Assembly (NCBI GenBank): GCA_038087875.1
Contig: CM075992.1
Span: forward strand, 6,140,001 to 6,204,000
Direction of reading: 5' to 3'
DNA from: Malacoraja senta
Lineage: Eukaryota
DNA length: 64,000 nt
The first letter of the stretch is position 1; each line of letters opens with the position of its first letter. The notes under the pieces are model-generated. The model saw only the letters and a list, made by a program, of their open reading frames with translations, had not been told where the DNA came from and searched no databases. Below are positions 1 to 40,207 of the stretch, piece by piece. Made by a program: the position numbers and the translations under genes.

Positions 1-369
1 TCCCCTCTGCCCCTCACCCAGAGCTCCACCATGGTGCTCCCACCATGTGCAGCGTCAGACTGGGCGACCTGAAGTGTTCTCAATATTCCAAGTGTGGTCT
101 CACCAACATTTACACAATTGTAACACAACATCTCAGCTGTTGTACTGAATGCCCTGACCAATGAAGGCAAACATGGCAAGTGCCTTCTTTGTCACCTTTT
201 CACCCAATCAAATCTGTGATCCACAATTTCCCACCCAGAGGGCCATGTTAACCATCACTAATCAGTCCCCGCCGTCCCTTCCACAGCTTCTGCCTGACTT
301 GGTGAGTGTTTCCGTCATCTCCAGTTTTGATTCCCTGAACATCAGCTCTCATCCCAAGTCTGCGTTTAC

Positions 370-501
370 CTTGACAGGCCTGGTGCATCTGTCCCGGCTC
401 TGGGTGATATCCCGCTCCACAGACACAGAGGTAACTCCCAAAGGTGTTGCGACAAGTCATGTTGGCGCTGCACTGGTGCCCATGCTCGCATTCGTCCTTG
501 C
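370..501 (-). CDS. cbEGF-like exon (unique type, last visible exon)
   Basis: ctgcaacag|GCAAGGAC...TGTCAAG|gtaaac; 132 nt; GKDECEHGHQCSANMTCRNTFGSYLCVCGAGYHPEPGQMHQACQ. Confidence 0.85.
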
Positions 502-3500
502 CTGTTGCAGAGAGGGACAGAGATACAAACATCAACAGCACGGATGGTGAGGAGCGAGAGACTGCGATTGACGAGGGAGTGATGCACAGAATCTGACAGG
601 AGCTCACTCTCACATCCCTGTTACACTTCACCCACTCTCTGCCCGGCATGTTCTTACCCCACACTGAGGGCTGATCTCATAGAGGTGTATGAAATCATGA
701 GGGGAATAGATAGGGTGAGTCTTTTATCCAGAGCAGGGGAATCAAAAACTACAGGTTTAAGAGGGGCATTTTAATAGGAAGCGGAGGGGCAACTGTTTCA
801 CTCAGAGGGGGGCAGATATATGCAATGAGGGGACAGAGGAGGTAATTGAGGCAGACTGGTCGGCATGGATGAGTTGGGCCGAAGGGCCTATTTCCGTGCT
901 GTATAACTATGACTGTATGTCTCATAGACACAGGAGTCATTGGAAACACTCCTATTTCTCCGTTTTCGTCCAACATGTCAAGTAGGTGCGGGTTTGTCAG
1001 TTAATTAGCCTCTGTAAATTGCCTCTACTGTGTAGGGAGTGGAGAAGAAAGTGGGAGAATATAGAACTCATGCTGTATCTCTAAACTAAACCAAACTAAA
1101 CTCCCAGACCTTGTGTGACATCCAGCTCTAACTCGGCCTATCTGGACGATACCACATGACCGCTGTTTCCAAGGGCACAGCCTGGTCCACATCTCCATCT
1201 CCCAATCCCCACACATTCAGATCCATGTCCAAAGTCAAGTTAAACCATTTGACTTGACCGCCTCCAGCGGGACCCAACTCCACGTTGGGCTCAGGCGCAG
1301 GTTGGGCTCTAATCAGGTTTGAATTTTGAATCTCAGTGGACAACAAATCCCAAGTGACCCTAGCCTTCTTTGAAAATACAATGACCTTCCTGTGGCCTTG
1401 GCTGAGGACAACGTCCATGAGATCCTTTGTTAATTCCAGGAATCTGCGGGATAATATGAAGGGTAGGCAACCCCAATGCCAACTTGAGACCCTTCACAAT
1501 GGTAAACCTTGTTGTTCTCTGTTACCTGAGCACATTGTGTCTGGTCAGAGTATGTTGGTGGTGCAGGATAAAATCACCACAGTCTCCATCTACAAACTCA
1601 TATTCACATCCCATCACAGCAGCGGGAATATGGGAAACAACTAATCATGAGTAATGGTGCTCACAAAAATGAACAAGTTGTCACAAATATACCATCGGTT
1701 TCTCTCACGTCCCCGGGGAAGGAGATCTGGTGTCCTCACCAGGTCAAGCCCACGTGACCTACGCACGAATGTGGTTGACTCTTCCTGTCCTCACCTTCAC
1801 AGGTTTTATTTGCATGGAGTCCGGTGGACGAAGCTGATGCCTGAAACCCTGCGTTGCAGTTGCACTGGTAGGAACCCCTCGTGTTGGTACAAGTTGCGTT
1901 ATGGTGACAGGGCGAGGATTCACACTCATCGATATCTGTGTAAACAGTGACAACAGAATCACGTTGTTTACTCGTTGATAACCTGGTGTGACAGGAGCTC
2001 ACTCTCACATCCCTGTTGCTCTTCACCCACTCTCTGCCCAGCATGGTCTTACCCCACACTGAGGGCTGATCTTATAGAGATGTATGAAATCATGAGGGGA
2101 ATAGATAGGATGAATGCACAGTCTTTTATCCAGAGCAGGGGAATCAAAAACCAGAGAACAGAGGTTTAAGAGAGGGGTAAATTTAATAGGAAGCTGAGGG
2201 GCAACTGTTTCACTCAGAGGGGGCAGATATATGGAACGAGGTGACAGAGGAGGTAATTGAGGCAGATTCTATAACAACATTTAACAGACACTTGGACAGG
2301 TACAGGGATAAGAAGTGCTCTGGGGGATATGGGCCAAATGTTTGTAAATATGATGAACTTAGATAGGGCATGTTGGTCGGCATGGATGAGTTGGGCCGAA
2401 GGGCCTGTTTCCGTGCTGTATGACTATGACTGAATGCCTCATAGACACAGGAGTCAATGGAAACACTCCTGATTCTCCGGTTTCCTTCAATATCTCAAGT
2501 AGGTGGGTTTGTCGGTTAATTAGCCTCTGTAAATTGCCTCTAGTGTGTAGGGAGTGGAGAAGAAAGTGGGAGAATATAGAACTCATGCTGTATCTCTGAA
2601 CTAAACCAAACTAAACTCCCAGACATTGTGTGACATCCAGCTCTAACTTGGCCTATCTGGACGTTACCTCATGACCGCTGCTTCCAAGGGCACAGCCTGG
2701 TCCACATCTCCATCTCCCAATCCCCACACATTCAGATCCATGTCCAAAGTCAATTTAAACCATTAGACTTGACCGCCTCCAGCGGGACCCAACTCCAGGT
2801 TGGGCTCAGGCTCAGGTTGGGCTCTAACCAGGTTTGAATTTTGAATCCCAGTGGACAACAAATCCCAAGTGACCCCAGCCTTCTTTGAAAACACCACGAC
2901 CTTCCTGTGGCCTTGGCTGAGGACAACGTCCATGAGATCCTTTGTTAATTCCAGGAATCTGCGGGATAATATGAAGGGTAGGCAACCCCAATGCCAACTT
3001 GAGACCCTTCACAATGGTAAACCTTGTTGTTCTCTGTTACCTGAGGACATTGTGTCTGGTCAGAGTATGTTGGTGGTGTAGGATAAAATCACCACAGTCT
3101 CCATCTACAAACTCAGATTCACATCCCATCACAGCAGCAGGAATATGGGAAACAACTAATCATGAGTAATGGTGCTCACAAAAATGAACAAGTTGTCACA
3201 AATATACCATCGGTTTCTCTCACGTCTCCAGGGAAGGAGATCTGGTGTCATCACCAGGTCAAGCCCACGTTACCAACGCACCAATGTGGTTGACTATTCT
3301 TGTCCTCACCTTCACAGGTCTTATTTGCATGGAGTCCGGTGGATGAAGCTGGTGCCCAAAACCCTTTGTTGCAGTCGCACTGGTAGGAACCCAGCATGTT
3401 GTTACAAGTTGCGTTATGGTGACAGGGCAAGGATTCACACTCATCGATATCTGTGTAAACAGTGACAATCATTAACAACAGAATCACATTGTTTACTTGT

Positions 3501-6500
3501 TGTTAACCTGGTGTGATCGCCAGGACTGGTCTCTGTGAACAGAACCACCAATGTGGTGATTCTATAATGACGCCTGTCGAGAGAGTGATGCACGGAGGGT
3601 GACAGGAGCTCACTCTCACGTCCCTGTTACTCTTCATCCACTCTCTGCCCGGCATGGACTTACCCCACACTGAGAGCTGACCTTATAGAGGTAAATGAAA
3701 TAGGAGGGGAATAGATAGGGTGAGTGCACAGTCTTTATCCAGAGCAGGGGAATCAAAAACCAGAGGACACAGGTTTATGAGGGGCAAATTTAATAGGAAG
3801 CTGAGGGGCAACTGTTTCACTCAGAGGGGTGCAGATATATGGAATGAGATGACAGAGGAGGTAATTGAGGCAGATGCTATAATAACATTTAACAGACACT
3901 TGGACAGGTACAGGGATAAGAAGTGCTCAGTGGGATACGGACCAAATGTTTGTAAATGGGACTAACAGATGTGGCATGGATGAGTTGGGCCAAAGGGGTG
4001 TTTCCGTGCTGTATGACTCTATGACTGCATGCCTCATAGACACAGGAGTCATTGGAAACATTCCTGATTCTCCGCTTTCGTCCAAGATGTCAAGTAGGTG
4101 CGGGTTTGTCGGTTAATTAGCCTCTGTAAATTGCCTCTAGTGTGTAGGGAGTGGAGAAGAAAGTGGGAGAATATAGAACTCATGCTGTATCTCTAAACTA
4201 AACCAAACTAAACTCCCAGACATTGTGTGACATCCAGCTCTAACTCGGCCTATCTGGACGTTACCACATGACCGCTGCTTCCAAGAGCACAGCCTGGTCC
4301 ACATCTCCATCTCCCAATCCCCACACATTCAGATCCATGTCCAAAGTCAAGTTAAACCATTTGACTTGACCGCCTCCAGCAGGACCCAAATCCAGGTTGT
4401 GCTCAGGCTCAGGTTGGGCTCTAAGCAGGTTTGAATTTTGAATGTCAGTGGACAACAAATCCCAAGGGACCCCAGTCTTCTTTGAAAACACTACGACCTT
4501 CCTGTGGCCTTGGCTGAGGACAACGTCCATGAGATCCTTTGTTAATTCCAGGAATCTGCTGGATAATATGAAGGGTAGGCAACCCCAATGACAACTTGAG
4601 ACCCTTCACAATGGTAAACCTCGTTCTCTGTAACCTGAGGACATTGTATCTGGTCAGAGTATGTTGGTGGTGCAGGATAAAATCACCACAGTCTCCATGT
4701 ACAAACTCATATTCACATCCCATCACAGCAGCGGGAATATGGGAAACAACTAATCATGAGTAATGGTGCTCACAAAAATGAACAAGTTGTCACAAATATA
4801 CCATCGGTTTCTCTCACGTCTCCAGGGAAGGAGATCTGGTGTCCTCACCAGGTCAAGCCCATGTGATCAACGCACCAATGTGGTTGACTCTTCCTGTCCT
4901 CACCTTCACAGGTCTTATTTGCATGGAGTCCGGTGGACGAAGCTGATGCCTGAAACCCTGCGTTGCAGTTGCACTGGTAGGAACCCAGCGTGTTGTTACA
5001 AGTTGCATTATGGTGACAGGGCGAGGATTCACACTCATCGATATCTGTGTAAACAGTGACAATCATTAACAACAGAATCACATTGTTTACTTGTTGATAA
5101 CCTGGTGTGACAGGAGCTCACTCTCACATCCCTGTTGCTCTTCACCCACTCTCTGCCCGGCATGGACTTACCGCACACTGAGGGCTGATCTTATAGAGGT
5201 GTATGAAATCATGAGGGGAATAGATAGGATGAATGCACAGTCTTTTATCCAGAGCAGGGGAATCAAAAACCAGAGGACAGAGGTTTAAGAGAGGGGTAAA
5301 TTTAATAGGAAGCTGAGGGGCAACTGTTTCACTCAGAGGAGGCAGATATATGGAACGAGGTGACAGAGGAGGTAATTGAGGCAGATTCTATAACAACATT
5401 TAACAGACACTTGGACAGGTACATGGATAAGAAGTGCTCTGGGGGATATGGGCCAAATGTTTGTAAATATGATGAACGTAGTTAGGGCATGTTGGTCAGC
5501 ATGGATGAGTTGGGCCAAAGGCCCTGTTTCCATGCTGTATGACTATGACTGAATGCCTCATAGACACAGGAGTCAATGGAAACACTCCTGATTCTCCGGT
5601 TTCCTTCAATATCTCAAGTAGGTGGGTTTGTCGGTTAATTAGCCTCTGTAAATTGCCTCTAGTGTGTAGGGAGTGGAGAAGAAAGTGGGAGAATATAGAA
5701 CTCATGCTGTATCTCTGAACTAAACCAAACTAAACTCCCAGACATTGTGTGACATCCAGCTCTAACTCGGCCTAACTGGATGTTACCACATGACCGCTGC
5801 TTCCAAGGGCACAGCCTGGTCCACATCTCCATCTCCCAATCCCCACACATTCAGATCCATGTCCAAAGTCAATTTAAACCATTAGACTTGACCGCCTCCA
5901 GCGGGACCCAACTCCAGGTTGGGCTCAGGCTCAGGTTGGGCTCTAACCAGGTTTCAATTTTGAATCTCAGTGGACAACAAATCCCAAGTGACCCCAGCCT
6001 TCTTTGAAAACACTATGACCTTCCTGTGGCCTTGGCTGAGGACAACGTCCATGAGATCCTTTGTTAATTCCAGGAATCTGCGGGATAATATGAAAGGTAG
6101 GCAACTCCAATGCCAACTTGAGACCCTTCACAATGGTAAACCTTGTTGTTCTCTGTTACCTGAGGACATTGTGTCTGGTCAGAGTATGTTGGTGGTGCAG
6201 GATAAAATCACCACAGTCTCCATCTACAAACTCAGATTCACATCCCATCACAGCAGCGGCAATATGGGAAACAACTAATCATGAGTAATGGTGCTCACAA
6301 AAATGAACAAGTTGTCACAAATATGCCATCGGTTTCTCTCACGTCTCCAGGGAAGGAGATCTGGTGTCCTCACCAGGTCAAGCCCATGTGACCAACGCAC
6401 CAATGTGGTTGACTCTTCCTGTCCTCACCTTCACAGGTTTTATATGCATGGAGTCCGGTGGACGAAGCTGATGCCTGAAACCCTACGTTGCAGTCGCACT

Positions 6501-9500
6501 GGTAGGAACCCCTCGTGTTGGTACAATTTGTGCTATGGTGACAGGGCGAGGTTTCACACTCATCGATATCTGTGTAAACAGTGACAATCATTAACAACAG
6601 AATCACATTGTTTACTTGTTGTTAACCTGGTGTGATCGCCAGGACTGGTCTCTGTGAACAGAACCAGCAATGTGGTGATTCTATAATGACGCCTGACGAA
6701 AGAGTGATGCACGGAGGGTGACAGGAGCTCACTCTCACGTCCCTGTTGCTCTTCACCCACTCTCTGCCCGGCATGGACTTACCCCACACTGAGAGCTGAC
6801 CTTATAGAGGTAAATGAAATCATGAGGGGAATAGATAGAGTGAGTGCACAGTTTTTATCCAGAGCAGGGGAATCAAAAACCAGAGGACACAGGTTTAAGA
6901 GAGGGGCAAATTTAATAGGAAGCTGAGGGGCAACTGTTTCACTCAGAGGGGGGCAGATATATGGAATGAGGCAGATGCTATAATAACATTTAACAGACAC
7001 TTGGACAGGTACAGGGATAAGAAGTGCTCAGTGGGATATGGACCAAATGTTTGTAAATGGGACTAACGTAGTTGGGGCATGGATGACTTGGGCCGAAGGG
7101 CCTGTTTCCGTGCTGTAGGACTCTATGACTGCATGTCTCATGGACACAGGAGTCATTGGAACCACTCCTGACCCTCCGCATTCGTCCAATATATCAAGTA
7201 GGAGCGGGTTTGTCGGTTAATTAGCCTCTGTAAATTGCCTCCAGTGTGCCGGGAGTGGAGAAGAAAGTGGGAGAATATAGAACTCATGTTGTATCTCTAA
7301 ACTAAACCAAACTAAACTCCCAGACCTTGTGTGACATCCAGCTCTAACTCGGCGTATCTGGACGTTACCACATGACCGCTGCTTCCAAGGGCACAGCCTG
7401 GTCCACATCTCCATCTCCCAATCCCCACACATTCAGATCCATGTAGGAACCCATCGTGTTGGTACAGGTTGCTTGATTGTGACAGGGCGAGGATTTACAC
7501 TCGTCGATATCTGTGTGAACAGAGAAACCCTTCACAATGGTAAACCTCGTTGTTCTCTGTTACCCGAGGACATTGTGTCTGGTCAGAGTATGTTGGTGGT
7601 GCAGGATAAAATCACCACAGTCTCCATCTACAAACTCAGATTCACATCCCATCACAGCAGCGGGAATATGGGAAACAACTAATCATGAGTAATGGTGCTC
7701 ACAATAATGAACAAGTTGTCACAAATATACCATCGGTTTCTCTCACGTCTCCAGGGAAGGAGATCTGGTGTCCTCACCAGGTCAAGCCCACGTGACCTAC
7801 GCACCAATGTGGTTGACTCATCCTGTCCTCACCTTCACAGGTCTTATTTGCACAGAGCCCGGTAGACGAAGCTGATGCCTGAAACCCTACGTTGCAGTTG
7901 CACTGGTAGGAACCCAGCGTGTTGTTACAAGTTGCGTTATGGTGACAGGGCGAGGATTCACACTCATCGGTATCTGTGTAAACAGTGACAATCATTAACA
8001 ACAGAATCACATTGTTTACTTGTTGATAACCTGGTGTGATCACTGGGTCTGGTCTATGTAACCAGAACCAACGTGGTGGCTCTTAAATACTGCAGGAAAT
8101 GTCCTTGGAAGTCAGTCGCTTACTTGCCTTGGTTGCTCCAACAGCTGCTTCCAGACATTTTTACCTTTATCAGCAAATAGGACAAGGGCTTCAGGCACTG
8201 GGAACACCACCACCTACAGGTTCCCCTCTGTCACGCACAACCCTATTTGGAAATACTTTGCTGGTCCTACATCATTATTGGGTCTAAATCATGGACCTCA
8301 CCTTGTGAGCAACTAATATTCTGTTCCTTGAGCAGAGAAACAACCAGTTCCTCACCACCAACACACCCGCTGCTCTGGCTGAACCCACGGTTTGTGGGCC
8401 TGTACTTGTTGGAGTTTAGATGGATGATGGGGGCATCTCATTGAAACTTACTGAAGAATGAAAGGCCTGGATGGAAAGAATGTGGAGAGGCTGTTTCGAC
8501 TAGTGGCCAAGTCTTCGAGTTTTTTTAAAGCGGAGCTACAGCTGCTTGGACCAGTTCCCGTCCCCTGCTTCCATGGGCTCTCCCCGCTCCATCGATCTGT
8601 TTCCCAGTGTTCAGTAGTGAGCTGAGCCTAGGCTGGAGCTTGGGACAGGAGTGACCACGGCTGCTCGCACTGCTGACCCGATGGGACATGTTCCTCAGCA
8701 TGACACGGTCTCCATCCAAGGAACCTGGCTGGTCCTTAAACTCATCTCCCAATCTCTAATATATTTAGAATGAAAAGTAAGAAAAAGGCCTATTTAGGAT
8801 TGATTGAACCCAGCTGACACAACCCACCGCCACCCTGTGCTATTTCTTTTGGAATTTGCACAGGGCAGCCGCCAGGAAATTACTCCTTAATTCCAGGGAT
8901 CTGCAAAACAATTCTGGAGCATTCCCAATCCCATTCCCAATTTGAGATTTATTCTCCACTTCATGGTGATGTGAAGACCTAATCCTCACAGATCTTCAAA
9001 CCTGTGTATCTTTGAAGCGTGGGAGGGAACCGGTGCACCCGGAGAAAACCCGCGCGGTCACGGGGAGAACGTGCAAACTCCATACAGACAGCATCCAGAG
9101 TCCATCGCTGCACTACTTTGCCACTGCGATGTTGTCTGTTACACAAGGACTCTGGTGTCTGAGTGTGTTGGTATGGGCCCATAGAGGTGGGCTGTAGAGG
9201 CTTTGCAGGACGCTCACTCTGCAAAGTCCTCAACCAGTCGGGCATTACGGGGCTGGCAAAGAAGAGGGCCATTCAATCTGCAAGCGAAGCCGCAGAGAAA
9301 GCCACTAGGGTGGTTTTTGATTAAGAGGGCTGATCCATGGGCGGTTGCTGCTGGGACACAAGTCAGGGCTTGATCAACCCAGGCTGGGTCACCTGGGCGA
9401 GGGGGTCTGATCTTGTGAGACCCGAAACACCCGATGACCCTAGGTCACATCATTGAGGATGCGTCCCAGCGCATCTAGAAGATGTATCTTTCACACAGTG

Positions 9501-12500
9501 GTACAGGGATTAAATCACAATAGTCATCTACAAAACTGGAATTCAAATCCCTCTACTCCAGCGGGAATTTAGAAAAATAATCATCAGTGATGGCACTCGT
9601 AAAATGAACAAAATGTCATGAAAACCCATTGGTTTCTCTAATCCCCTCCCTGGAAGGAAATCCGGTAATGTAACCAGCTCCAGCCGACATGATCAGAGTA
9701 CCAATCTCTCTCAAAGTCCTCACCTTCACAGGTCTTATTTGCAGGGAGTCCGGTGGACGAAGCTGATGCATGAAACCCTGCGTTGCAGTTGCACTGGTAG
9801 GAACCCAGCGTGTTGGTACAAGTTGCGTTATGGTGACAGGGCGAGGATTCACAGTCATCGATATCTGTGTAAACAGTGAAAACCCTTCACAATTGTAAAC
9901 GTTGTTCTATGTTACACGAGGACTCTGGTGTCTGGACAGAGTATGTTGGTGGCGCAAGGATAAAATCAGCACAATAATCATCTACAAAACTGGAATTTAA
10001 ATCCCACCACAGTGGCGGAAATTTGGAAAACATCTAATCATCGGTAGTGGTGCTCACATAGATGAACAAGTTGTCGTGAAAACCCGTTGGATTTTCTCAT
10101 GTCTCCAGGGAGGAAAATCTGGTGTCATCACAAGGTCAAGCCCACGTGACCAATACGCCAATGTGGTTGACTCTTAGAGTCCTCACCTTCACAGGTCTTA
10201 TTTGCACGGAGTCCAATGGACGAAGCTGATGTCTGAAACCCTGCGTTGCAGTTGCACTGGTAGGAACCCAGCATGTTGGTACAAGTTGTGTTATGGTGAC
10301 AGGGCACTGATTTATACTCATCGATATCTGTGTAAACAGTGACAATCGTTAACAACAAAAACACATTGTTTACTCATTGTTAACCTGGTGTGATCGCCAG
10401 GCCTGGTCTATGTAACCAGAACCAACGTGGTGACTCTTAAATACTGCAGGGAATGTGCTTGGAAGTCAGTCGATTACTTGCCTTGGTTGCTCCAACAGCT
10501 GCTTCCAGACATTTTTACCTTTATCAGCAAATAGGACAAGGGCTTCAGGCACTGGGAACACCACCACCCACAGGTTCCCCTCCAAGTCATGCACAACCCT
10601 ATTTGGAAATACTTTGCTGGTCCTGCATCATTACTGGGTCTAAATCATGGACCTCACCTTGTGAGCAACTAATATTCTGTTCCTTGAGCAGAGACACAAC
10701 CAGTTCCTCACCACCAGCACACTCGCTGCTCTGGCTGAACCCACCGTTTGTGGGCCTGTACTTGTTGGAGTTTAGATGGATGATGGGGGAATCTCATTGC
10801 AACTTACTGAAGAATGAAAGGCCTGGATGGAAAGAATATGGAGAGGCTGTTTCTACTAGTGACCAAGTCTTCGAGTTTTTTTAAAGCGTAAATTGATAGG
10901 TTCTTCATTAGTACAGGTGTCAGGTTTATGGGGAGAAGGCAAGAGAATGGGTTTGAGAGGGAAAGATAGATCAGCCATGACTGAATAGTAGTGACTGGGT
11001 GGTCCGAAATGCCTGTTTCCGCGCTGTATCTCAAAACTAAACAATAAATCCAACCTTCACAGTCCTCTGCAGTGATGCCATTTGTCGCAGCTGATGCATG
11101 AAACCCTGCGATGCAGTTGCACCGGTAGGAACCCGGCGTGTTGTCACAAAACGTGTTTTTGCCACAGGTTGCGGATTTGCATTCGTCAATATATGTGGGA
11201 ACAGTGAAAACCCTTCACAATAGTAACACAGTTTGCACCCTGTTGCACTCTGTAACTATGTTGATAGAATGGAGCTGCTGGGCTTGTCTACTCTGGAATT
11301 TAGAAGGATGAGAGGCAATCTTATTGAAACATTTAAGATTATTAAGGGTTTGGACACGCTCGAGGCAGGAAACATGTTCCCGATGTTGGGGGCGTCCAGA
11401 ACCAGGGGTCATACTTTAAGAATAAGAGGCAAGCCATTTAGAATAGAGATGAGGAAAAACGTTTTCACACAGAGGGTTGTGAATCTGTGGAATTCTCAGC
11501 CTCAGGCCAATTCTCTGGATGCTTTCAAGAGAGAGTTAGATAGAGCTCTTAAAGATAGCGGAGTCAGGGGATATGGGGAGAAGGCAGGAACGGGGTACTG
11601 ATTGTGGATGATCAGCCATGATCACAGTGGATGGCAGTGCTGGCTTGAGGGACCTACTCCTGCACCTATTGTCTATTGTCTGGATGCAGCAACACACCGG
11701 CGTGTGCCTTAAACACAGAGCAGACCCTCGTTGGAACAAAGGATTAAGTGAAAGGTTGAGGGAGAAAGACAGGTGGAAGGAGTTAAGGAACAGATCTTCC
11801 TGGATCAAATGGAATTGAGGAACCAAATGGCCTTGGACAAGCCAGAAGCTGTGATGATTGCCCTCGATTCCATTGGACTGGAAGCTGTCTGCCGGTGAGA
11901 GTGGAAAGGTTGAGCAGTAACCCAGCCTTCTCTATCAGGGCAGTTGTGTAAAGAACCATGTCACGGTGTGGCTGGTGTGGGCGACATGGGGTGGTTGCAG
12001 ACACAGGGTGTCCACTGCTCCGTTAATCTTTAATGTGGCTCCGAGCCCAGACCGGGTCTGGCCACATCTGGACCTCCGCAAATTGCCCCCTCCGCACGGA
12101 GCGAGACATGCAGGTACGGCCTTGCACCGTGTGGGACCAGCGAACTGGGACTGCAGTGAGCCCACCAGCTACAGCTTCTTGGACCAGTTCCCGGAGGTGG
12201 CATTGTACCGTCCCCTGCTTCCAAGGGCTCTCCCCGCTCCATCGATCTGTTTCCCAGTGTTTAGTAGTGAGCTGAGCCTAGGCTGGAGCTTGGGACAGGA
12301 GTGACCACGGCAGCTGGCACTGCTGACCCGATGGGACATGTTCCTCAGCATGACACGGTCTCCATCCAAGGAACCTGGCTGGTCCATAAACTCATCTCCC
12401 AATCTCTAATATATTTAGAATGAAAAGTAAGAAAAAGGCCTATTTAGGATTGATTGAACCCAGCTGACACAACCCACCACCACCCTGTGCTATTTCTTTT

Positions 12501-15500: not shown

Positions 15501-18500
15501 CAGAAGCTGTGATGATTGCCCTCAATTCCATTGGACTGGAAGCTGTCTGTCGGTGAGTGGAAAGGTTGAGCAGTAACCCAGCCTTCTCTATCAGGGCAGT
15601 TGTGTAAAGAACCATGTCACAGTGTGGCTGGTGTGGGCAACATGGGGTGGTTGCAGACACAGGGTGTCCACTGCTCCGTTAATCTTTAACGTGGCACCGA
15701 GCCCAGACCGGGTCTGGCCACATCTGGACCTCCGCAAAATCGCCCCCTCCGCACGGAGCGAGACCTGCAGGTACGGCCTTGCACCGTGTGGGACCAGGGA
15801 ACTGGGACTGCAGTGAGCCCACCAGCTACAGCTGCTTGGACAGTTCCCGGAGGTGGCATTGTACCGTCCCCTGCTTCCAAGGGCTCTCCCCACTCCATCG
15901 ATCTGTTTCCCAGTGTTTAGTAGTGAGCTGAGCCTAGGCTGGAGCTTGGGACAGGAGTGACCACGGCTGCTGGCACTGCTGACCCGATGGGACATGTTCC
16001 TCAGCATGACACGGTCTCCATCCAAGGAACCTGGCTGGTCCTTAAACTCATCTCCCAATCTCTAATATATTTAGAATGAAAAGTAAGAAAAAGGCCTATT
16101 TAGGATTGATTGAACCCAGCTGACACAACCCACCACCACCCTGTGCTATTTCTTTTGGAATTTGCACAGGGCAGCCGCCAGGAAATTACTCCTTAATTCC
16201 AGGGATCTGCAAAACAATCCTGGAGCATTCCCAATCCCATTCCCAATTTGAGATTTATTCTCCACTTCATGGTGATGTGAAGACCTAATCCTCACAGATC
16301 TTCAAACCTGTGTATCTTTGAAGCATGGGAGGGAACCGGTGCACCCGGAGAAAACCCGCGCGGTCACGGGGAGAACGTGCAAACTCCATACAGACAGCAT
16401 CCAGAGTCCATCGCTGCACTACTTTGCCACTGCGATGTTGTCTGTTACACAAGGACTCTGGTGTCTGAGTGTGTTGGTATGAGCCCATAGAGGTGGGCTG
16501 TAGAGGCTTTGCAGGATGCTCACTCTGCAAAGTCCTCAACCAGTTGGGCATTACGGGGCTGGCAAAGAAGAGGGCCATTCAATCTGCAAGCGAAGCCGCA
16601 GAGAAAGCCACGAGGGTGGTTTTGGATTAAGAGGGCTGATCCATGGGCGGTTGCTGCTGGGACACAAGTCAGGGCTTGATCAACCCAGGCTGGGTCACCT
16701 GGGCGAGGGGGTCTGATCTTGTGAGACCCGAAACACCCGATGACCCTAGGTCACATCATTGAGGATGCGTCCCAGCGCATCTAGAAGATGTATCTTTCAC
16801 ACAGTGGTACAGGGATAAAATCACAATAGTCATCTACAAAACTGGAATTCAAATCCCTCTACTCCAGCGGGAATTTAGAAAAATAATCATCAGTGATGGC
16901 ACTCGTAAAATGAACAAAATGTCATGAAAACCCATTGGTTTCTCTAATCCCCTCCCTGGAAGGAAATCCGGTAATGTAACCAGCTCCAGCCGACATGATC
17001 AGAGTACCAATCTCTCTCAAAGTCCTCACCTTCACAGATCTTATTTGCACGGGGTCCGGTGGACGAAGCTGATGCCTGAAACCCTGCGTTGCAGTTGCAC
17101 TGGTAGGAACCCAGCGTGTTGGTACAAGTTGCGTTATGGTGACAGGGCGAGGATTCACACTCATCGATATCTGTGTAAACAGTGAAAACCCTTCACAATT
17201 GTAAACGTTGTTCTCTGTTCCACGAGGACTCTGGTGTCTGGACAGAGTATGTTGGTGGCGCAAGGATAAAATCAGCACAATAATCATCTACAAAACTGGA
17301 ATTTAAATCCCACCACAGTGGCGGAAATTTAGAAAGCATCTAATCATCGGTAGTGGTGCTCACAAAGATGAACAAGTTGTCGTGAAAACCCGTTGGATTT
17401 TCTCATGTCTCCAGGGAGGAAAATCTGGTGTCATCACAAGGTCAAGCCCACATGACCAATACGCCAATGTGGTTGACTCTTAGAGTCCTCACCTTCACAG
17501 GTCTTATTTGCACGGAGTCCAATGGACGAAGCTGATGTCTGAAACCCTGCGTTGCAGTTGCACTGGTAGGAACCCAGCATGTTGGTACAAGTTGTGTTAT
17601 GGTGACAGGGCACTGATTTACACTCATCGATATCTGTGTAAACAGTGACAATCGTTAACAACAAAAACACATTGTTTACTCATTGTTAACCTGGTGTGAT
17701 CGCCAGGCGTGGTCTATGTAACCAGAACCAACGTGGTGACTCTTAAATACTGCAGGGAATGTCCTTGGAAGTCAGTCGATTACTTGCCTTGGTTGCTCCA
17801 ACAGCTGCTTCCAGACATTTTTACCGTTATCAGCAAATAGGACAAGGGCTTCAGGCACTGGGAACACCACCACCCACAGGTTCCCCTCCAAGTCATGCAC
17901 AACCCTATTTGGAAATACTTTGCTGGTCTTGCATCATTACTGGGTCTAAATCATGGACCTCACCTTGTGAGCAACTAATATTCTGTTCCTTGAGCAGAGA
18001 CACAACCAGTTCCTCACCACCAACACACTCGCTGCTCTGGCTGAACCCACCGTTTGTGGGCCTGTACTTGTTGGAGTTTAGATGGATGATTGGGGAATCT
18101 CATTGCAACTTACTGAAGAATGAAAGGCGTGGATGGAAAGAATGTGGAGAGGCTGTTTCTACTAGTGACCAAGTCTTCGAGTTTTTTTAAAGCGGAGATT
18201 GATAGGTTCTTCATTAGTACAGGTGTCAGGTTTATGGGGAGAAGGCAAGAGAATGGGTTTGAGAAGGGAAGATAGATCAGCCATGACTGAATAGTGGTGA
18301 CTGGGTGGTCCGAAAGGCCTGTTTCTGCGCTGTATCTCAAAACTAAAGAATAAATCCAACCTTCACAGTCCTCTGCAGTGATGCCATTTGTCGCAGCTGA
18401 TGCATGAAACCCTGCGATGCAGTTGCACCGGTAGGAACCCGGCCTGTTGTCACAAAACGTGTGTTTTTGCCACAGGTTGCGGATTTGCATTCGTCAATAT

Positions 18501-21500
18501 ATGTGGGAACAGTGAAATCCCTTCACAATAGTAACACAGTTTGCTCGCTGTTGCACTCTGTAACTATGTTGATAGAATGGAGCTGCTGGGCTTGTCTACT
18601 CTGAAATTTAGAAGGATGAGAGGCAATCTTATTGAAACATTTAAGATTATTAAGGCTTTGGACACGCTCGAGGCAGGAAACATGTTCCCGATATTGGGGG
18701 CGTCCAGAACCAGGGGCCATAGTTTAAGAATAAGAGGCAAGCCATTGAGAATAGAGATGAGGAAAAACTTTTTCACACAGATGGTTGTGAATCTGTGCAA
18801 TTCTCAGCCTCAGGCCAATTCTCTCTGCTTTCAAGAGAGAGTTAGATAGAGCTCTTAAAGATAACAGAGTCAGGGGATATGGCGAGAAGGCAGGAACGGG
18901 GTACTGATTGTGGATGATCAGCCATGATCACAGTGAAAGTTGGTGCTGGGTCGAGGGGCCGAATGGCCTACTCCTGCATCTATTGTCTAATGTCTGGATG
19001 CAGCAACACACCGGCGTGTGCCTTAAACACAGGGCACACCCTCATTGGAACAAAGGATTAAGTGAAAGGTTGAGGTAGAAAGACAGGTGGATGGAGTTAA
19101 GGAACAGATCTTCCTGGACCAAATGGAATTGAGGAACCAAATGGCCTTGGACAAGCCAGAAGCTGTGATGATTGCCCTCGATTCCATTGGACTGGAAGCT
19201 GTCTGTCGGTGAGTGGAAAGGTTGAGCAGTAACCCAGCCTTCTCTATCAGGGCAGTTGTGTAAAGAACCATGTCACGGTGTGGCTGGTGTGGGCAACATG
19301 GGGTGGTTGCAGACACAGGGTGTCCACTGCTCCGTTAATCTTTAACGTGGCTCCGAGCCCAGACCGTGTCTGGCCACATCTGGACCTCCGCAAAATCGCC
19401 CCCTCCGCACGGAGCGAGACCTGCAGGTACGGCCTTGCACCGTGTGGGACCAGGGAACTGGGACTGCAGTGAGCCCACCAGCTACAACTGCTTGGACCAG
19501 TTCCCGGAGGTGGCATTGTACCGTCCCCTGCTTCCATGGGCTCTCGATCGATCTGTTTCCCAGTGTTTAGTAGTGAGCTGAGCCTAGGCTGGAGCTTGGG
19601 ACAGGAGTGACCACGGCTGCTGGCACTGCTGAGCCGATGGGACATGTTCCTCAGCATGACACGGTCTCCATCCAAGGAACATGGCTGGTCCATAAACTCA
19701 TCTCCCAATCTCTAATATATTTAGAATGAAAAGTAAGAAAAAGGCCTATTTTGGATTGATTGAACCCAGCTGACACAACCCACCACCACCCTCTGCTATT
19801 TCTTTTGGAATTTGCATAGTGCAGCCGCCAGGAAATTATTCCTTAATTCCAGGGATCTTCAAAACAATCCTGGAGCATTCCCAATCCCATTCCCAATTTG
19901 AAATATATTCTCCACTTCATGGTGATGTGAAGACCTTACACTCACAGATCTTCAAACCTGTGTATCTTTGAAGCGTGGGAGAAAACAGCTGCACCCGGAG
20001 AAAACCCGCGCGGTCACGGGGAGAACGTGCAAACTCTATACAGACAGCACCCAGAGTCCATCGCTGCACCACTCTGCCACTGTGATGTTCTCAGTTACAC
20101 GAGGACTCTGGTGTCTGAGTGTGTTGGTATGGGCCCATAGAGGTGGGCTGTAGAGGCTTTGCAGGACGCTCACTCTGCAAAGTCCTCAACCAGTTGGGCA
20201 TTACGGGGCTGGCAGAGAAGAGGGCCATTCAATCTGCAAGCGAAGCCGCAAAGAAAGCCACTAGGTGGCTTTGGATGAAATCTCCATTTTGTGGATAATT
20301 TAGGCCAGTATTCTCTGTGAGATGAAGTCCATACCTCACAGATCATCCCTGAACTGAGGCAGGAATTAAGAAAGTAATATCAGTATTGCTGCTCCCAAAA
20401 ATGGGCACGTTGTCATGGAAACCCATTGGTTTCTCTGATGCCCACCCCCAGTGAATGATATCTGATCCCCTCACCAAGACTACCCAATGTGATCAGATGC
20501 ACCAATGTCTCTTAAAGTCCTCACCTTGACAGATCTTCCCTCACCAGGTCAAGCCCATGTGACTAACGCACCAATGTGGTTGACTCTACCTGTCCTCACC
20601 TTCACAGGTCTTATTTGCACGGAGTCCGGTGGATGAAGCTGATGCCTGAAACCCAGCGTTGCAGTTGCACTGGTAAGAACCCAGCTTGTTGTTACAAGTT
20701 GTGTTATGGTGACAGGGCGAGGATCCACACTCATCGATATCTGTGTAAACAGTGACAATCGTTAACAACAAAAACACATTGTTTACTCATTGTTAACCTG
20801 GTGTGATCACCGGGCCTGGTCTATGTAACCAGAACCAATGTGGTGACTCTTAAATACTGCAGGGAATGTCCTTGGAAGTCAGTCGATTACTTGCCTTGGT
20901 TGCTCCAACAGCTGCTTCCAGACATTTTTACCTTTATCAGCAAATAGGACAAGGGCTTCAGGCACTGGGAACACCACCACCCACAGGTTCCCCTTCAAGT
21001 CATGCACAACCCTATTTGGAAATACTTTGCTGGTCCTGCATCATTACTGGGTCTAAATCATGGACCTCACCTTGTGAGCAACTAATATTCTGTTCCTTGA
21101 GCAGAGACACAACCAGTTCCTCACCACCAGCACACTCGCTGCTCTGGCTGAACCCACCGTTTGTGGGCCTGTTCTTATTGGAGTTCAAGATTCAAGAGAG
21201 TTTATTTTCATGTGTCCCTGATAGGACAATGAAATTCTTGCTTTGTTTCAGCACAACAGAACATAGTAGGCATGACTACAGAACAGATCAGTGTGTCCAT
21301 ATACCATTATATTAAATATATACACACATGAATAAATAAACTGATAAAGTGCAAATAACAGATAATGGGCTATTAATGTTCAGAGTTTTGTCCGAGCCAA
21401 GTTTAATAGCCTGATGGCTGTGGGGAACTAGCTATTCCTGAACCTGGTCGTTGCAGTCTTCAGGCTCCTGTACCTTCTACCTGATGGTAGCGGGGAGATG

Positions 21501-24500
21501 AGTGTGTGGCCCGGATGGTGTGGGTCCTTGATGATGCTGCCAGCCTTTTTGAGGCAGCGACTGCGATAGATCCCCTCGATGGAAGGGAGGTCAGAGCCGA
21601 TGATGGACTGGGCAGTGTTTACTACTTTTTGTAGTCTTTTCCTCTTTTAGGTTTCTGCAGCAACACAGAGCAGAAGGATGAGGGGGAATGCAGAGGCCCC
21701 CTAACCAAGTCTGGTGTACGACAGCCCCCAATAAGAGCTTTTATGCACGACCTTACCATCACCACAGCATTGGTCCCAGGAAGTAGGTGGATCCTACCCA
21801 GTCTTTAGAAACCTATCACCTGGGTAAGGATGAGTTTCAAGCCAACAAAGTCAAGGTCCTTTGTGCTGAAGAAGGGGAAGGTGACTGACAAATTCCACTT
21901 CTCACCATCCGGAACTGCCATTCCCTCCATCACTGAGCAACCTGTCAAGAGTTTTGACGAACTCTGAAAGACTCTGCCGCCATTCAAAAGTCCATCGAAG
22001 ACCTTGAAGCTTGGCTCACCAAAGTCGACAAGTCAGATCTGCCTGGCAGATTCAAGCCCTCGATCTATCGGCATTCCATCCTGCCCCGGGTCCTGTGGCC
22101 TCTGCTGGTTTACGCTGTTCCATTGACCACAGTTGAGTCCCTCGAAAGGAAGATGAGCGGCTTTCTCCGCAGGTGGCTTGGCCTTCCCCGCAGCCTCAAC
22201 AGTGCAGCACTGTATGGGACCAGTAACATCTTGCAGCTCCCATTCAGTGGCCTCACGGAAGAGTTTATGGTGGCGCAAACAAGAGAAGCTCTGCAGTACA
22301 GGGACTCCAGGGACCGGAAGGTGTCATCGGCTGGCATCGAGGTGAGAACAGGGAGGAAATGGAGGGCGGAGAAAGCAGTGGAGGTGGCAGAGCCACGCCT
22401 AAGGCAAAAGAAATTGGTGGGAGTCATGGAAACTGGCAGAGCGGGTTTGGGATACTTCCCTAAGACACCGGTTGGCAAGACCCAGGGCAAGGAGAGACAC
22501 CATCTAATCCAGTAAGAGGTCCGAGCAGGTGTGGAGGAAGAGCGTGTGAGCTGAAATTTCCACAGCACATCACAGCAACATCACTCCGGCCAGACATGAT
22601 CATCACCTCCGAAGTGACAAAACAGCTGATCATTCTGGAGCTGACAGTACCCTGGGAAGAGCGTATTGAAGAGGCTAATGAGAGGAAACGCACAAAGTAC
22701 CAGGAACTGGTGAAGATGTGCCAGGACAGAGCCTGCAAAGCCTCCACAGCTCACCTCTATGGGCTCATAGTATGAGCCCATAGAGGTGAGCTGTGGAGGC
22801 TTTGCAGGACGCTCACTCTGCAAAGTCCTCAACCAGTTGGGCATTACGGGGCTGGCAAAGAAGAGGGCCATTCAATCCGCAAGCGAAGCCGCAGAGAAAG
22901 CCACTAGGGTGGTTTTGGATTAAGAGGGCTGATCCATGGGCGATTGCTGCTGGGACACAAGTCAGGGCTTGATCAACCCCGGCTGGGTCACCTGGGCGAG
23001 GGGGTCTGATCTTGTGAGACCCGAAACACCCGATGACCCCAGGTCACTTCATTGAGGATGCGTCCCAGCGTATCTAGAAGATGTATCTTTCACACAGTGG
23101 TACAGGGATAAAATCACAATAGTCATCTACAAAACTGGAATTCAAATCCCTCTACTCCAGCGGGAATTTAGAAAAATAATCATCAGTGATGGCACTCGTA
23201 AAATGAACAAAATGTCATGAAAACCCATTGGTTTCTCTAATCCCCTCCCTGGAAGGAAATCCGGTAATGTAACCAGCTCCAGCCGACATGATCAGAGTAC
23301 CAATCTCTCTTAAAGTCCTCACCTTCACAGATCTTATTTGCAGGGAGTCCGGTGGACGAAGCTGATGCCTGAAACCCTACGTTGCAGTTGCACTGGTAGG
23401 AACCCAGCGTGTTGTTACAAGTTGCGTTATGGTGACAGGGTGAGGATTCACACTCATCGATATCTGTGTAAACAGTGACAATCATTAACAACAGAATCAC
23501 ATTGTTTACTTGTTGTTAACCTGGTGTGATCGCCAGGACTGGTCTCTGTGAACAGAACCAGCAATGTGGTGATTCTATAATGATGCCTGACGAGAGAGTG
23601 AAGCAAGGATTGTGACAGCAGCTCACTCTCACGTCCCTGTTGCTCTTCATCCACTCTCTGCCCTGCATGGACTTACCCCACATTATTAACCACTTCCATG
23701 GAGCCATCGTGTCACAGAGCAATACAGCACACAAACAGACCCTTCAGCCCTAATCATCCATGCTGAGCTAGTTGTTTAGTCCTACTCAGCTATGCCTGAC
23801 CCATACCCTTCCAATCCTTCCCTGTCCATGTACCTGTCAAAGTGTCTGATGTCGTAGGTACACAAAAATGCTGGAGAAACTCAGCGGGTGCAACAGCATC
23901 TATGGAGCGAAGGAAATAGGCAACGTTTCGGGCCGAAACCCTTCCCGATTTTCCAGCATCTGCAGTTCCTTCACGATTTTCCAGCATCTGCAGTTCCTTC
24001 TTAAACACTTTGTCTGATGTAGTATTTGTCCCACCTCGACCACTCCCTCTGGCAGCTCATTCCACTCTCACTCTGCGGAAAAGTTGTTCCTTCTCACCAT
24101 ATGCCTTGTTTTAGACTCTCCTATCCTGTGGAAAAGACTGTGGCTGTTCAACTTAGCCGAGGCCATAAAGCGTAGATTCAGCTGCACTTGGCACAAGAGT
24201 GGGGTCGAGTCATGTGCCTGGTAGTACTGTTGCCAGCGGCGCAGGTTCAATCCTGACCTCGGGTGCTGTCTATGTGGAGTTTGCCCGTTCTCCCTCTGAC
24301 CGCGTGTGTTGTCTCCGGGTCCTCCGGTTTCCTTCCACATCCCAGAGACATGTGGGTTTGCAGTGTAAATGTCATCTGTGACGTTGCCCCTAGTGTGCAG
24401 GGAGTGAATGAGAAAGTGGCATAACATAGTGTTCACTCGTGTGAGCAGGTGATCGATGGTCAGCATAGACTCGGTGGGCAGAATGGCTTGCCTCCATGCT

Positions 24501-27500
24501 GTATCTCTGAACTAAACCAAACTAAAGTTCCAGACCTTGTGTGACATCCAGCTCTAACTCGGCCTATCTGGACGTTACCACATGACCACTGCTTCCAAGG
24601 GCACATCCTGGTCCACATCTCCATCTCCCAATCCCCACACATTCAGATCCATGGCCACACTCTGTGCATCCCTCCATACCCAATCGATGCATTCATTATT
24701 CGCACCTGGGTGGCACGGTGGCGTAGCGGTAGAGTTGCTGCCTTACAGCGCATGCAGCGCCGGGGACCCGGGTTCGATGCCACCTACGGGTGCTGTCTGC
24801 ACGGAGTTTGCACGTTCTCCCCGTGACCCGTGTGGGTTTACTCCGAGATCTTTGCTTTCTTCCCACAGTCCAAAGACACAAAGGTATGTCAGTAAATTGA
24901 CTTGGTATAAGTGTAAATTGTCCCTAGTGTGTGTAGGATGGTGTTTGTGTGTGGGGATCGCTGGTCGGTGCGGACTCGAAGGGCCTGTTTCTGCGCTGTA
25001 TCTCTAAACTAAATTAAACTAAACCTTGAGATTCACTCTTCATTTTATTCTTATTGTATGTCCTTACCTTTATCAGGACATGAACATGAAATTACAGTTG
25101 TACGCTCAGCCTTGCATTGACACCAGTAGGATCCTTGAGTGTTGACACACAGGATGTCGGCTCCACATTGATCGCTTTCACATTCGTTGACATCTGTGAA
25201 AAGAGGGAAAAATCTTCACCATCTTATCATTGTTTGCTCTGCGCTACATGTGAGGGGTGGCCATCCAGGACAGAGAGGAATCCCCTTCACTCAGGGAAGT
25301 GGTAATGGTTGTAATTCTCCCCCCAAAGGGCTGTGACTGAGCACAATCAGGCAGAGATCCATGGACCATTGGACAATGAGGTGATCTAGGGATCTGATGT
25401 TAGTGCGGGGAAGTGGCTCTGTCGTAAAAGACTGGCCGATACCGCTTTGAACGGGCAAGCAGTAATGAGGGGCCGAAGGGTCTGCTCCCGCTGCTATATG
25501 TTCTTATATCAATGTTATGAACACATTTATACAGAAGATAGACACAAAAAGCTGGAGTAACTCAGCGGGACAGGCAGCATCTCTGGGAAGAAGGAATGGG
25601 TGACGTTTTGGGTCGAGACCCTCCTTACACACATTTATACATATACACACACTTAAATGGAAGCATTAGAAACACACATGTACACACGCAGGCTCATTTA
25701 CCCACACGTATGAACATATACATTCATGAAACTCATTCATCTGACTGCTTTCCCCACTTTAATCTCAAGCACACCAGTTACCTGAGACAATTTAGCCCTC
25801 ACCTGTACACTGCTTGTTGTCATTTGGATGAACTTTATAGCCTAATCCACACTGGCTCGTCTGGGATCGAACGACCATGCAGACACCACAGCTCACGAGA
25901 ACTAGAAGAAACAAAACAAAGCAGTTAGACTTTTGTTCCCCCAATTTTGCTCCTGAAATCAAAGGACAACAACCCAATACAGGCATGAGCCCAGCGAGCG
26001 TTGACATTGACCATGGGAAGTAGACGGGCTGAAGGCAATGGGCTCCCTTCAGATGTGGAAAACGAGTCGTGGGATCAAAGGATCAACAGAGAGCTGTGAG
26101 TCTGTGGAATTCTCCGCCTCAGAGGGCGGTGGAGGCCGGTTCTCTGGTTACGTTTAAGAGAGAGCTAGATAGGGCTCTTAAAAATAGTGGAGTCAGGAGA
26201 TATGGGGAGAAGGCCGGAACGAGGAACTGATTGGGGATGATCAGCCATGATCACATTGAATGGCGGTGCTGGCTCGAAGGGCCGAATGGCCTACTCCTGC
26301 ACCTATTGTCTATTGTCTGTGTCGCTCCTTATTTTAAAACACTTCTATCTGGACTCCCCTCAACCTCCGATGTACCAGCGAAAACAGTCCAGGTCTGCCC
26401 AACCTCCTTATGGCTAATCCAGGCAGCATGCTGGCAAATTTCTTCTGCACCCTCTCCAAAAGCTTCACATCCTTCCTGTAATGTGGTGACAGCAATTGCA
26501 CGCAACACTCCAAATGAGGCCACAGCAAAGTCCGATCAAGCTACATCATGACCACCGGAAGACTCTGATACTCGATGCCCTGACCGATGAAGACAAGGTA
26601 ACCATACCCCATCTTTACCACTCTTTCTCAGTGGGGCGCCGTCCAGTTGGGTGCCCTTCCTGCAGCTGTCCGTCTTTTCACTTCTTTTTTTAATTTTTAG
26701 TATGTTAAAATAGTGTTTTGTTTTGGAGGTCTAGTCTTTTATGTGGGGGGTGGGGGGGGGGAAGGGGGAAATTGCTTTTCCTAGTCCCTACCTGGTCGGA
26801 GAGGCGGCTTTCCTCCGAGCAGCATCTTCGACCCGTCCTCGCGGCCTACCATCGGGCCTGGAGCGGCGTTTCCTGAGGGGACCGGCCAGAACCACGGCTT
26901 CGGGGGCGGCACAGCGCTGGAGCGCTATCGCGGAGCGGGCGATGCCTTGCCCAGGTCACCGCACTGGAGCTGGGTCCGCCGATTAGAACATCGCGGAGCT
27001 GCGGGTCTGTGGAGCGTCCAGCCGCGGGCAGTGGCGCTATCTTTAACATCGCGGAGCCTGGGATCACTCGCTGAGATCGCCAGTGGTGGAGCTCCGTCCA
27101 GCACGGCCTGTTGGCTTCGGAAGCCGCGGTCTCCGGTAAGGAAGCAGCCGTTCCAGGTATCCCAAGCCGCTGAGAGGGTTCTCCCGATGCCAGAACACCA
27201 TCACCATCACCCAGCAAGAAGGGCCTGAAACATCGCGCCGCCATAGCGCCAATTGCAGAGGCCTAAATAAGCCCGACTATGGGTGGACAAGTTAAATTCC
27301 TTTATAATGTTATGTTGTATTCTTATTAATGTGCTTCAATGGCAACTCGAATTTCACTACAACAATTGGTGTATGTGACAATAAATGAACCTTTCAACCT
27401 ACCTATTGACCGATGAAAGCATGTAAACCTTATGCCTTCTTTACCACATGTGTTGCCACTTTCAGGGAGCTTTTACATCAACCCATGGTGTCTGCTTCAG

Positions 27501-29713: not shown

Positions 29714-29829
29714 GTTGCTGAGACCTATTCTCTGCAGCATCACCCGCTCCTGTGTCAGCTGATTCTGAAAGCACCAGAATTTATACACAATCTGATCTCT
29801 CCATCACATCGAGCTAATCAGCGGGGAAA

Positions 29830-29839
29830 GGAAGTGAAA
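29830..29839. promoter_or_regulatory. Ets-IRF composite element (GGAAGTGAAA) in the putative TATA-less promoter
   Basis: Exact GGAAnnGAAA match within GGGGAAAGGAAGTGAAACT, ~120 bp upstream of the ATG of the EGF gene. Confidence 0.55.
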
Positions 29840-30107
29840 CTCTTGTTGTCAGGCAAAGACAACTACACTGGTATTTGTTAGGCATCTCGATTGTGTCCCA
29901 GTGTCAGTTGGGCAGGAGCCCGAACGGCAGGTCTGGAACAGTGTGGTAACACGGCTTCCATCCATAGAGACACATTGACTCTACAACACACCAACGCCTC
30001 CAGTTGCTCAGGAGGTGAAGGACATTCAGCATGTCTCCAATGACCCTTCCCAATTCCTGCAGATGCATCAGAGAAAGCATCATATCAGGCCGCATCGTCA
30101 CTTGTCA

Positions 30108-30520
30108 CCCTGGAGATTAGAAGGATGAGAGGGAATCTTATTGAAACATATAAGATCATTAAGGGTTTGGACACACAGGAGGCAGGAAACATGTTCCCGA
30201 TGTTGGGGGAGTCCAGAACCAGGGGCCACAGTTTAAGAATAAGGGGTAAGCCATTTAGAACAGAAACGAGGAAAAACGTTTTAACCCAGAGAGTTGTGAA
30301 TCTGTGGAATTCTCTGCCTCAGAGGGCGGTGGAGGCCGGTTCTCTGGATACTTTCAAGAGAGAGTTAGGGCTCTTAAAGATAGCGGAATCAGGGGTTACG
30401 GGGAGAAGGCAGGAACGGGGTACTGATTGGGGATGATCAGCCATGATCACATTGAATGGCGGTGCTGGCTCAAAGGGCCGAATGGCCTACTCCTGCACCT
30501 ATTGTCTATTGTCTATTGTC
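30108..30520 (+). mobile_element. CR1-type LINE 3' fragment
   Basis: MRGNLIETYKIIKGLD...[12 protein letters not shown]; (CTATTGT)n tail. Confidence 0.85.
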
Positions 30521-31790: not shown

Positions 31791-32278
31791 GGTAAACGGC
31801 AAACTTAGTCATACCCGTGGGAACTCGGTTAAACTCTTGAACATAAACTTGGAATCTCGTACACAACCACGAGTCTGATTTTCTCTTTCACTCGGGGTCA
31901 CTCGTGGGTCAACTCGCACCGTGAGACAGGGCCATTATTCTCTCGTGTATAATTTTTTATATATTTACACAAAGGAGTGGGAACATTTTTCCCGCCCCCC
32001 CCACCCCCACATCAGTCTGAAGAAGGGTCTCGACCCGAAACGTCACCTATTTCCTTCGCTCCATTGATGCTGCCTCACCCGCTGAGTTTCTCCAGCACTT
32101 TTGTCCAGCAACAAATTATGCACATATTTATATACATGCATACTTAAGTAGAAGCATTGGAAACACACTAGTGCGCACACACACACACACACACACACAT
32201 GAAAATCATTCATCTGACTGCTTTCCCCCACTTTAATCTCAGGCAAACAGTAGTCACCTGAGAAAATTTAACACTCAC

Positions 32279-40094: not shown

Positions 40095-40207
40095 TTATGA
40101 TTCTGCTGCAAAATGTTTACAACTTGCTTTACTCCATCACTGAGGATCCCCCTTCCAACTTCATTGGGTCTCTGATTCTTCGGTTTAGAGATACAGCATG
40201 GAAACAG

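Follow-up and report, generated by a model that had tools for sequence, protein, structure and literature searches.

A tandemly expanded calcium-binding EGF exon in a probable ADGRE1-4-type receptor gene of the skate Malacoraja senta

A 64,000-nucleotide (nt) stretch of the genome of the skate Malacoraja senta (assembly GCA_038087875.1, contig CM075992.1, positions 6,140,001 to 6,204,000; hereafter the window, numbered from its first letter) carries on its minus strand 15 exons coding for EGF modules, 13 of which are copies of a single calcium-binding EGF (cbEGF) cassette. The arrangement of these copies supports their origin by tandem duplication. We privilege the hypothesis, which we consider probable, that they form most of the 5' half of a gene for an ADGRE1-4-type (EMR/F4/80-like) receptor. 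Its glycosylated cbEGF stalk would bind a cell or matrix ligand and would change in length by unequal crossing-over and exon skipping.

A six-frame scan gives 15 six-cysteine EGF-like matches between positions 374 and 25182, all on the minus strand. Using a single cassette as query, blastn retrieves 13 full copies at 91-100% identity with an E value of 1e-64 or better for each, a signal that exceeds chance by far. An incomplete copy is also retrieved, and a second exon, termed type-B, is matched three times at 77-78%. Every cassette is exactly 141 nt long, of phase 1-1, with acceptor TTTACACAG and donor AAG|GTGAGG. In transcriptional order, cassettes 1 to 13 occupy positions 23323-23463, 20600-20740, 17493-17633, 17030-17170, 13837-13977, 13374-13514, 10187-10327, 9724-9864, 7833-7973, 6429-6569, 4904-5044, 3310-3450 and 1795-1935. 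They are bracketed by two unique EGF exons at 25068-25193 (exon 3, 126 nt) and 370-501 (last EGF exon, 132 nt), the latter coding for a module that relatives have ahead of GAIN. Pfam EGF_CA scores above cut-off in all three exons that were scanned, the two unique ones (29.1 bits for exon 3) and one cassette (43.8 bits for cassette 13). This organization is the one described by a first-pass annotation of the window, whose two end coordinates prove exact. The same annotation called the cassettes near-identical; their pairwise identity averages 92.4% over 78 pairs and extends from 86.5 to 100%, with a single identical pair, cassettes 3 and 5.

The gene starts upstream of the EGF array, and four dead exon copies within the array had been missed by that annotation. 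Coding exon 1 (29689-29713, minus strand, 25 nt, phase 1) provides the ATG and the start of a predicted signal peptide; it has a GT donor and a frame open into exon 2, and the in-frame upstream codons GLSN fit the MGLxN start of batoid ADGREs. Exon 2 (25803-25901, minus strand, 99 nt) codes for the remainder of the hydrophobic signal peptide and a two-cysteine loop. Its product is 74% identical to a Leucoraja fragment (P0046) and 52% identical to the N-terminus of a full-length Rhinoraja ADGRE (P0430; E 1e-8). The 17 exons (two for the signal peptide, two unique EGF exons and 13 cassettes) join into 2215 nt with 738 codons, no stop and AG/GT borders throughout. The joined product has a hydrophobic N-terminus followed by 15 EGF modules in frame, with 96 cysteines and 27 N-glycosylation sequons. 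Positions 26001-44802 were checked with ADGRE and keratin relatives as tblastn queries, by open reading frame listing and by reading, an approach in which small exons could be overlooked.

The proposal that one cbEGF exon expanded in tandem is borne out by two nested series of units. Three tandem 3.65-kb units (8587-19542), 97.8-98.3% identical, each include a single dead type-B exon along with two cassettes that are 463 bp apart. Four tandem units of ~1.5 kb (862-7075), 94.1-96.6% identical, hold one cassette each; alternate units are the closest to each other (ABAB), suggesting that a block of two units was duplicated. Exon birth and death through unequal crossing-over is the likely process behind such a unit structure. 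The four dead copies, all on the minus strand, are three type-B exons and one truncated cassette. The type-B exons at 18361-18500 and 14705-14844 have an acceptor changed from AG to AT and a frameshifting 2-nt insertion. The third one, at 11055-11192, keeps an open frame but is likely dead, with the same acceptor change and a weak donor; intact EGF modules of the Rhinoraja models P0133 and P0430 match it at 78-80% identity. Since the acceptor loss is common to the three window copies and the exon is intact in Rhinoraja, type-B probably died before the triplication. The truncated cassette (7443-7510, 68 nt) has an intact acceptor, and intron sequence from the 1.5-kb unit takes the place of its 3' half. 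It reads into a stop 25 codons on; if spliced in, it could serve as a poison exon or terminate a secreted form.

For one cassette, the closest full-coverage matches are ADGRE models of batoids that have GPS and 7tm_2 domains, at 66-70% identity, and the Leucoraja fragment, at 85%; full-cassette matches outside the ADGREs reach at most ~48%. The product of exon 3 is 71% identical to the Leucoraja fragment. The last EGF exon is 90% identical to Amblyraja XP_032906736.1 (P0236), where GAIN, GPS and the beginning of the seven-transmembrane domain (7TM) come after the module. Rhinoraja XP_078285542.1 (P0430) has a matching N-terminus, type-B modules at 80% and a last EGF at 70%, within an organization of 10 EGF_CA domains, GAIN, GPS and 7tm_2. 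A secretin-like 7TM is present in P0430 and P0402 and partially in P0236. With relatives sharing both the N-terminus and the last EGF, the GAIN, GPS and 7TM exons of the skate gene are expected to lie below coordinate 1 of the window. Features of ADGREs found in the window are a predicted signal peptide followed by tandem EGF and cbEGF modules, and symmetrical phase 1-1 EGF exons. The best sequence match in the PDB is ADGRE1 for a Rhinoraja relative (P0032) and ADGRE5 for the cassette profile, over all 47 positions. An AlphaFold model of one cassette is mediocre (predicted local distance difference test score 67.5). Its top Foldseek match, the EGF domains of EMR2, has an E value of 0.053, none attaining 0.001, and is given little weight. 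CD97/ADGRE5 and EMR2/ADGRE2, which give these best PDB sequence and fold matches, have EGF modules with a long C5-C6 loop like those of the skate, but they differ in having only 5 EGFs. Membership of the fibrillin, LTBP or fibulin families was considered and discarded, as these proteins have lower identity or coverage than batoid ADGREs and the flanking exons match ADGREs.

The position of the gene within the family was addressed with GPS-7TM trees in which relatives stand as proxies for the window's own 7TM. A quick tree of 39 rows was reduced to a careful one of 27 after removal of long-branch, partial and redundant rows. The elasmobranch clade joins ADGRE1-4 with supports of 99/98 in the careful tree and a Shimodaira-Hasegawa approximate likelihood-ratio support of 98 in the quick one. 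Under LG+G4, constraining it to group with CD97/ADGRE5 worsens the log-likelihood by 30.7 and is rejected by the approximately unbiased test (p-AU 0.0054). The place of the relatives' clade with ADGRE1-4 and the rejection of the CD97 grouping lead us to regard the gene as EMR/F4/80-type. The initial label of ADGRE/CD97-like is thus right as to family by homology, but its CD97-like part is rejected in the tree of relatives. Two separate elasmobranch ADGRE clades (P0151, P0149, P0143 and P0144; the P0032 clade) both fall on the ADGRE1-4 side. Two such clades would predate the split date suggested in PMC8584163, but the alternative of bony-vertebrate ADGREs monophyletic without elasmobranchs is not rejected (p-AU 0.064).

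As all cassettes are of phase 1-1, their gain, loss or skipping leaves the frame intact. Cassette acceptors have 11-14 pyrimidines per 20 nt versus 15-17 in the unique and keratin exons. RefSeq isoforms of relatives differ by single blocks of 47 or 94 amino acids (aa), with lengths of 1263/1216/1216 aa in Mobula birostris, 1073/1026/1026/979 aa in Pristis and 1011/964 aa in Hemitrygon. The weak acceptors and these isoforms make cassette skipping plausible. We presume that the receptor is displayed on leukocytes, where a calcium-stiffened, glycosylated stalk of up to 15 EGFs is taken to bind a ligand on another cell or in the matrix, and that force on the stalk presumably signals through a GAIN/tethered-agonist switch. 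An EGF module is 2.5-3 nm long, so that 15 modules, if rigid, would reach ~40 nm. The stalk would grow by unequal crossing-over in the germline and its length would shift when cassettes are skipped. The main effect of the resulting turnover by exon birth and death is probably an adjustment of reach and avidity, with new specificities a lesser outcome.

Several observations weigh against an ADGRE1-4-type receptor with such a stalk; they concern its membrane part, the copy number of the array, the splicing proposed for it and the constraint on its exons. GAIN and 7TM give no tblastn match in the window and the identity of the gene rests on relatives. The exons could then be those of an EGF protein that is secreted or is not a GPCR, of fibrillin-, LTBP-, fibulin- or mucin-like type, or of an ADGRE without membrane part, given that the 3' part of the gene is outside the window, that many EGF proteins score through repeat number and that the Leucoraja relative is annotated merely as a 142-aa fragment. 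We deem this very unlikely in view of the gap in full-cassette identity between batoid ADGREs, Leucoraja included (66-85%), and other proteins, and of an N-terminus, a type-B module and a last EGF that each match GAIN-7TM proteins. No contig among the sequencing runs compared spans the array, and the count of 13 cassettes rests on the assembly. The same window holds a 6.65-kb direct duplicate (36771-43425 and 44523-51171) that is 99.97% identical and ends exactly at an N gap (51172-51371). It is likely a false duplication or mis-join, and the assembly may accordingly hold others. Over-expansion of the array by the assembly, a concern raised by the first-pass annotation, is nevertheless highly improbable. 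Divergence between array units amounts to 1.7-5.9%, indels and lesions confined to particular copies are present, and the array contains no N; an identity of 94-98% between units stands against 99.97% for the gap-flanking duplicate. Contigs of public sequencing runs also cover several units. Those of four runs (X1, X2, X22 and X24) out of 24, none of the 24 being recorded as RNA, were compared with positions 1-12100; X1 and X2 are two samples of one organism from one study, possibly related to the source sample of the assembly, and X22 is another organism from another study. X1, X2 and X22 have eight listed genomic pieces each, over intron and exon parts of several array units, each piece having 0-9 differences for X1 and X2 and 4-19 for X22. 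X1 also contains the 2-nt-insertion form of the type-B exon, and X24 yielded short repeat pieces only; no splice junction is listed for any of the four. Contig depth was not taken as copy number. These units differ from each other and are present in two organisms, so the array is judged real. As to splicing, RefSeq isoforms may arise artefactually when reads are mapped to arrays of near-identical copies.

The mean pairwise ratio of nonsynonymous to synonymous changes (pN/pS) across cassettes is 0.93, and the M0 omega of 1.3-1.4 is indistinguishable from 1. Two cassettes have an odd number of cysteines (cassette 7, with Cys1 changed to Tyr and 5 cysteines left; cassette 9, with an extra seventh), and the last EGF exon begins with GKDEC in place of the DVDEC found in its Amblyraja equivalent, a loss of a calcium ligand. 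Together with the four dead copies, these lesions fit relaxed constraint. They would be expected if the gene, as one paralog within a multi-gene cluster, were a pseudogene, or if its array were decaying as exon junk that expands neutrally. The function might then be carried by an intact paralog, of which the more Amblyraja-like version of the last exon in X2 and X22 could be a sign. However, the 13 cassettes have no stop, no indel and no lost splice site, a weak argument alone as about one stop is expected, and the signal-peptide exons are intact. The average pN/pS moreover hides two classes of codons. Of 32 nonsynonymous variants, only 2 affect one of the 13 codons for structural residues (p 0.001-0.011 according to the weight given to CpG), and the non-structural codons have an omega of 1.7-2.0 (p 0.03-0.10). 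Gap runs number zero in exons versus six in introns of the 1.5-kb units. Purifying selection on the cysteine and calcium-binding scaffold is supported and decay appears improbable to us. The non-structural codons raise the converse possibility of a positively selected, combinatorially spliced repertoire for ligand or pathogen recognition, in which cassette sequence matters beyond cassette number. In site models run on 12 cassette sequences, the identical copy being left out, M2a is preferred over M1a with likelihood-ratio test (LRT) values of 9.3 (F1x4) and 19.4 (F3x4), and sites 8, 14, 19, 29, 32 and 41 are flagged. An LRT of 9.3 is reached neither in 38 finite runs of neutral simulations with 8x CpG mutation (maximum 9.09) nor in 20 without CpG effect. 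Exons are also more diverged than flanking introns in 4/5 overlapping unit comparisons (p 0.003-0.02). Yet 5/6 flagged codons are in CpG context and only 1/5 exon-versus-intron tests stays below p 0.05 when CpG sites are removed. The four-gamete test is failed by 19/120 informative site pairs, which indicates that gene conversion, not part of the simulations, may inflate the LRT, and cassettes still ~92% identical offer little diversity. Diversifying selection at other sites is only suggestive, and we find a recognition repertoire rather unlikely.

Under the preferred reading of an ADGRE1-4-type receptor, the long EGF stalk is not exceptional. The first-pass annotation contrasted it with receptors carrying few EGF domains, a contrast that is true for human and mouse only. 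Among 35 chondrichthyan ADGRE-like proteins, five have at least 9 EGFs (13 and 9 in Mobula; 9 each in Hemitrygon, Pristis and Stegostoma) and the remaining 30 have 0-7. Members of their clusters add Mobula birostris (manta) with 14, Pristis (sawfish) and Rhinoraja with 10 each and Hypanus with 9. In a set of 146 further representatives, 119 have a 7TM-like match, 10 of these with at least 12 EGFs. Two of the ten are of ADGRE1 type, from wallaby (15 EGFs) and olive ridley turtle (12); the other eight, with distant 7TMs (22-39%), were not counted as ADGREs. Astyanax mexicanus LOC103026087 (P0235) is adhesion-GPCR-like; its 49-aa EGF modules number 21 and closely resemble one another, and its isoforms form a cluster of 24 members. 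It branches outside ADGRE on a long branch and was dropped as an ADGRE precedent, but could be a parallel case. According to Waddell 2018 (PMC6174849), ADGRE1 of ruminants, horse, cat and dog probably encodes 14 EGFs, each EGF exon is probably skippable, and conservation is limited to structural and calcium motifs. The novelty of a long EGF array is thus overstated, arrays of 9-15 being known in rays, sharks, turtles and mammals. The idea of a diversification system is not new either, as pathogen-driven diversification was proposed for mammalian ADGRE1 in the same 2018 paper. Wittlake 2021 (PMC8584163) reports frequent variability in EGF-domain number and, in its accessible part, does not mention sharks. 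A 2026 review (PMC13197933) describes force-dependent signalling, and CD97 isoforms of 3-5 EGFs that differ in affinity for CD55. In open-licence PMC and bioRxiv, no article dealing with elasmobranch ADGRE EGF arrays was found; the arrays are already present in RefSeq models.

The skate gene shares with the long forms of mammalian ADGRE1 the single-exon, in-frame EGF modules, a similar number of them (~14 in PMC6174849) and a conservation restricted to structural and calcium motifs. It is not a one-to-one ortholog, and its array was built differently. The mammalian array is attributed in that paper to a one-step duplication of 7 dissimilar domains, whereas in the skate one exon is present 13 times through nested 0.46-, 1.5- and 3.65-kb units, ~92% identical, with dead copies in place. 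Its closest counterparts are the elasmobranch RefSeq ADGREs named E1-, E2- or E3-like (XP_078285542.1, XP_032906736.1, Mobula XP_072104453.1, Pristis XP_051898095.1 and Stegostoma P0139), which have the same N-terminus and the same last EGF. The batoid ones have the 47-aa module type in common with the skate cassettes. The skate differs from them by its dead type-B module, intact in Rhinoraja, and by its 15 EGFs, one above any elasmobranch model retrieved. In a module tree of 48 columns with 44/118 branches open, different lineages amplified different modules, though support is weak; window and Leucoraja modules group at 80/91.

The mammalian ADGRE1 pattern of variable EGF number and exon skipping would thereby extend to cartilaginous fish, splicing in the skate being a prediction. 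The locus also offers an unusually readable record, with nested duplication units, a module probably dead before triplication and live copies next to broken ones. It makes a good natural test of selection on ADGRE stalk length (reach, avidity and force transmission) versus cassette sequence (specificity). A broader and doubtful extension would be a recurrent engine of exon birth and death in an ancient ADGRE1-4-type leukocyte receptor cluster of sharks, skates and rays. There, a lineage-specific EGF exon would be amplified, its exposed residues diversified on the cysteine and calcium scaffold, and copy-number variation and skipping would yield a germline-encoded variable stalk for innate recognition. 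If true, this would place the split between ADGRE1-4 and CD97 before the origin of the jawed-vertebrate lineages, earlier than proposed in PMC8584163.

Some exons show individual features. The first EGF (exon 3) has 7 cysteines with a CSC motif; the Leucoraja relative shares the seventh, and this possibly free residue may therefore be conserved in skates. The N13 glycosylation sequon of the 12 other cassettes is lost in cassette 10, which has acquired one at N15, possibly a compensatory shift. In X2, the window version of the last EGF exon is accompanied by another one that differs from it at five positions within the exon and that recurs in X22. Three of the amino-acid changes of this variant agree with Amblyraja, which suggests that it is either a paralog or an old allele. 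Upstream of exon 1, positions ~32121-32350 of the minus strand hold a diverged copy, with 75% nucleotide identity, of exon 2 and the beginning of intron 2, and 30287-31795 resembles 26087-28404 at 91-93%. Both are likely relics of an older duplication of the 5' end of the gene.

Further upstream, a type I keratin gene occupies positions 57802-51372 of the minus strand, with exons at 57802-57353 and ~52811-52730 and a third one from 51419; the gene is cut by the 200-N gap, and later keratin exons were not found in the window. The encoded protein is 90% identical over 52 rod residues to a keratin 13-like protein of Amblyraja. The contig of the matching Amblyraja keratin has the same length (23,999,460) as that of the Amblyraja ADGREs, which suggests that the linkage between keratin and ADGRE genes is conserved with that skate.

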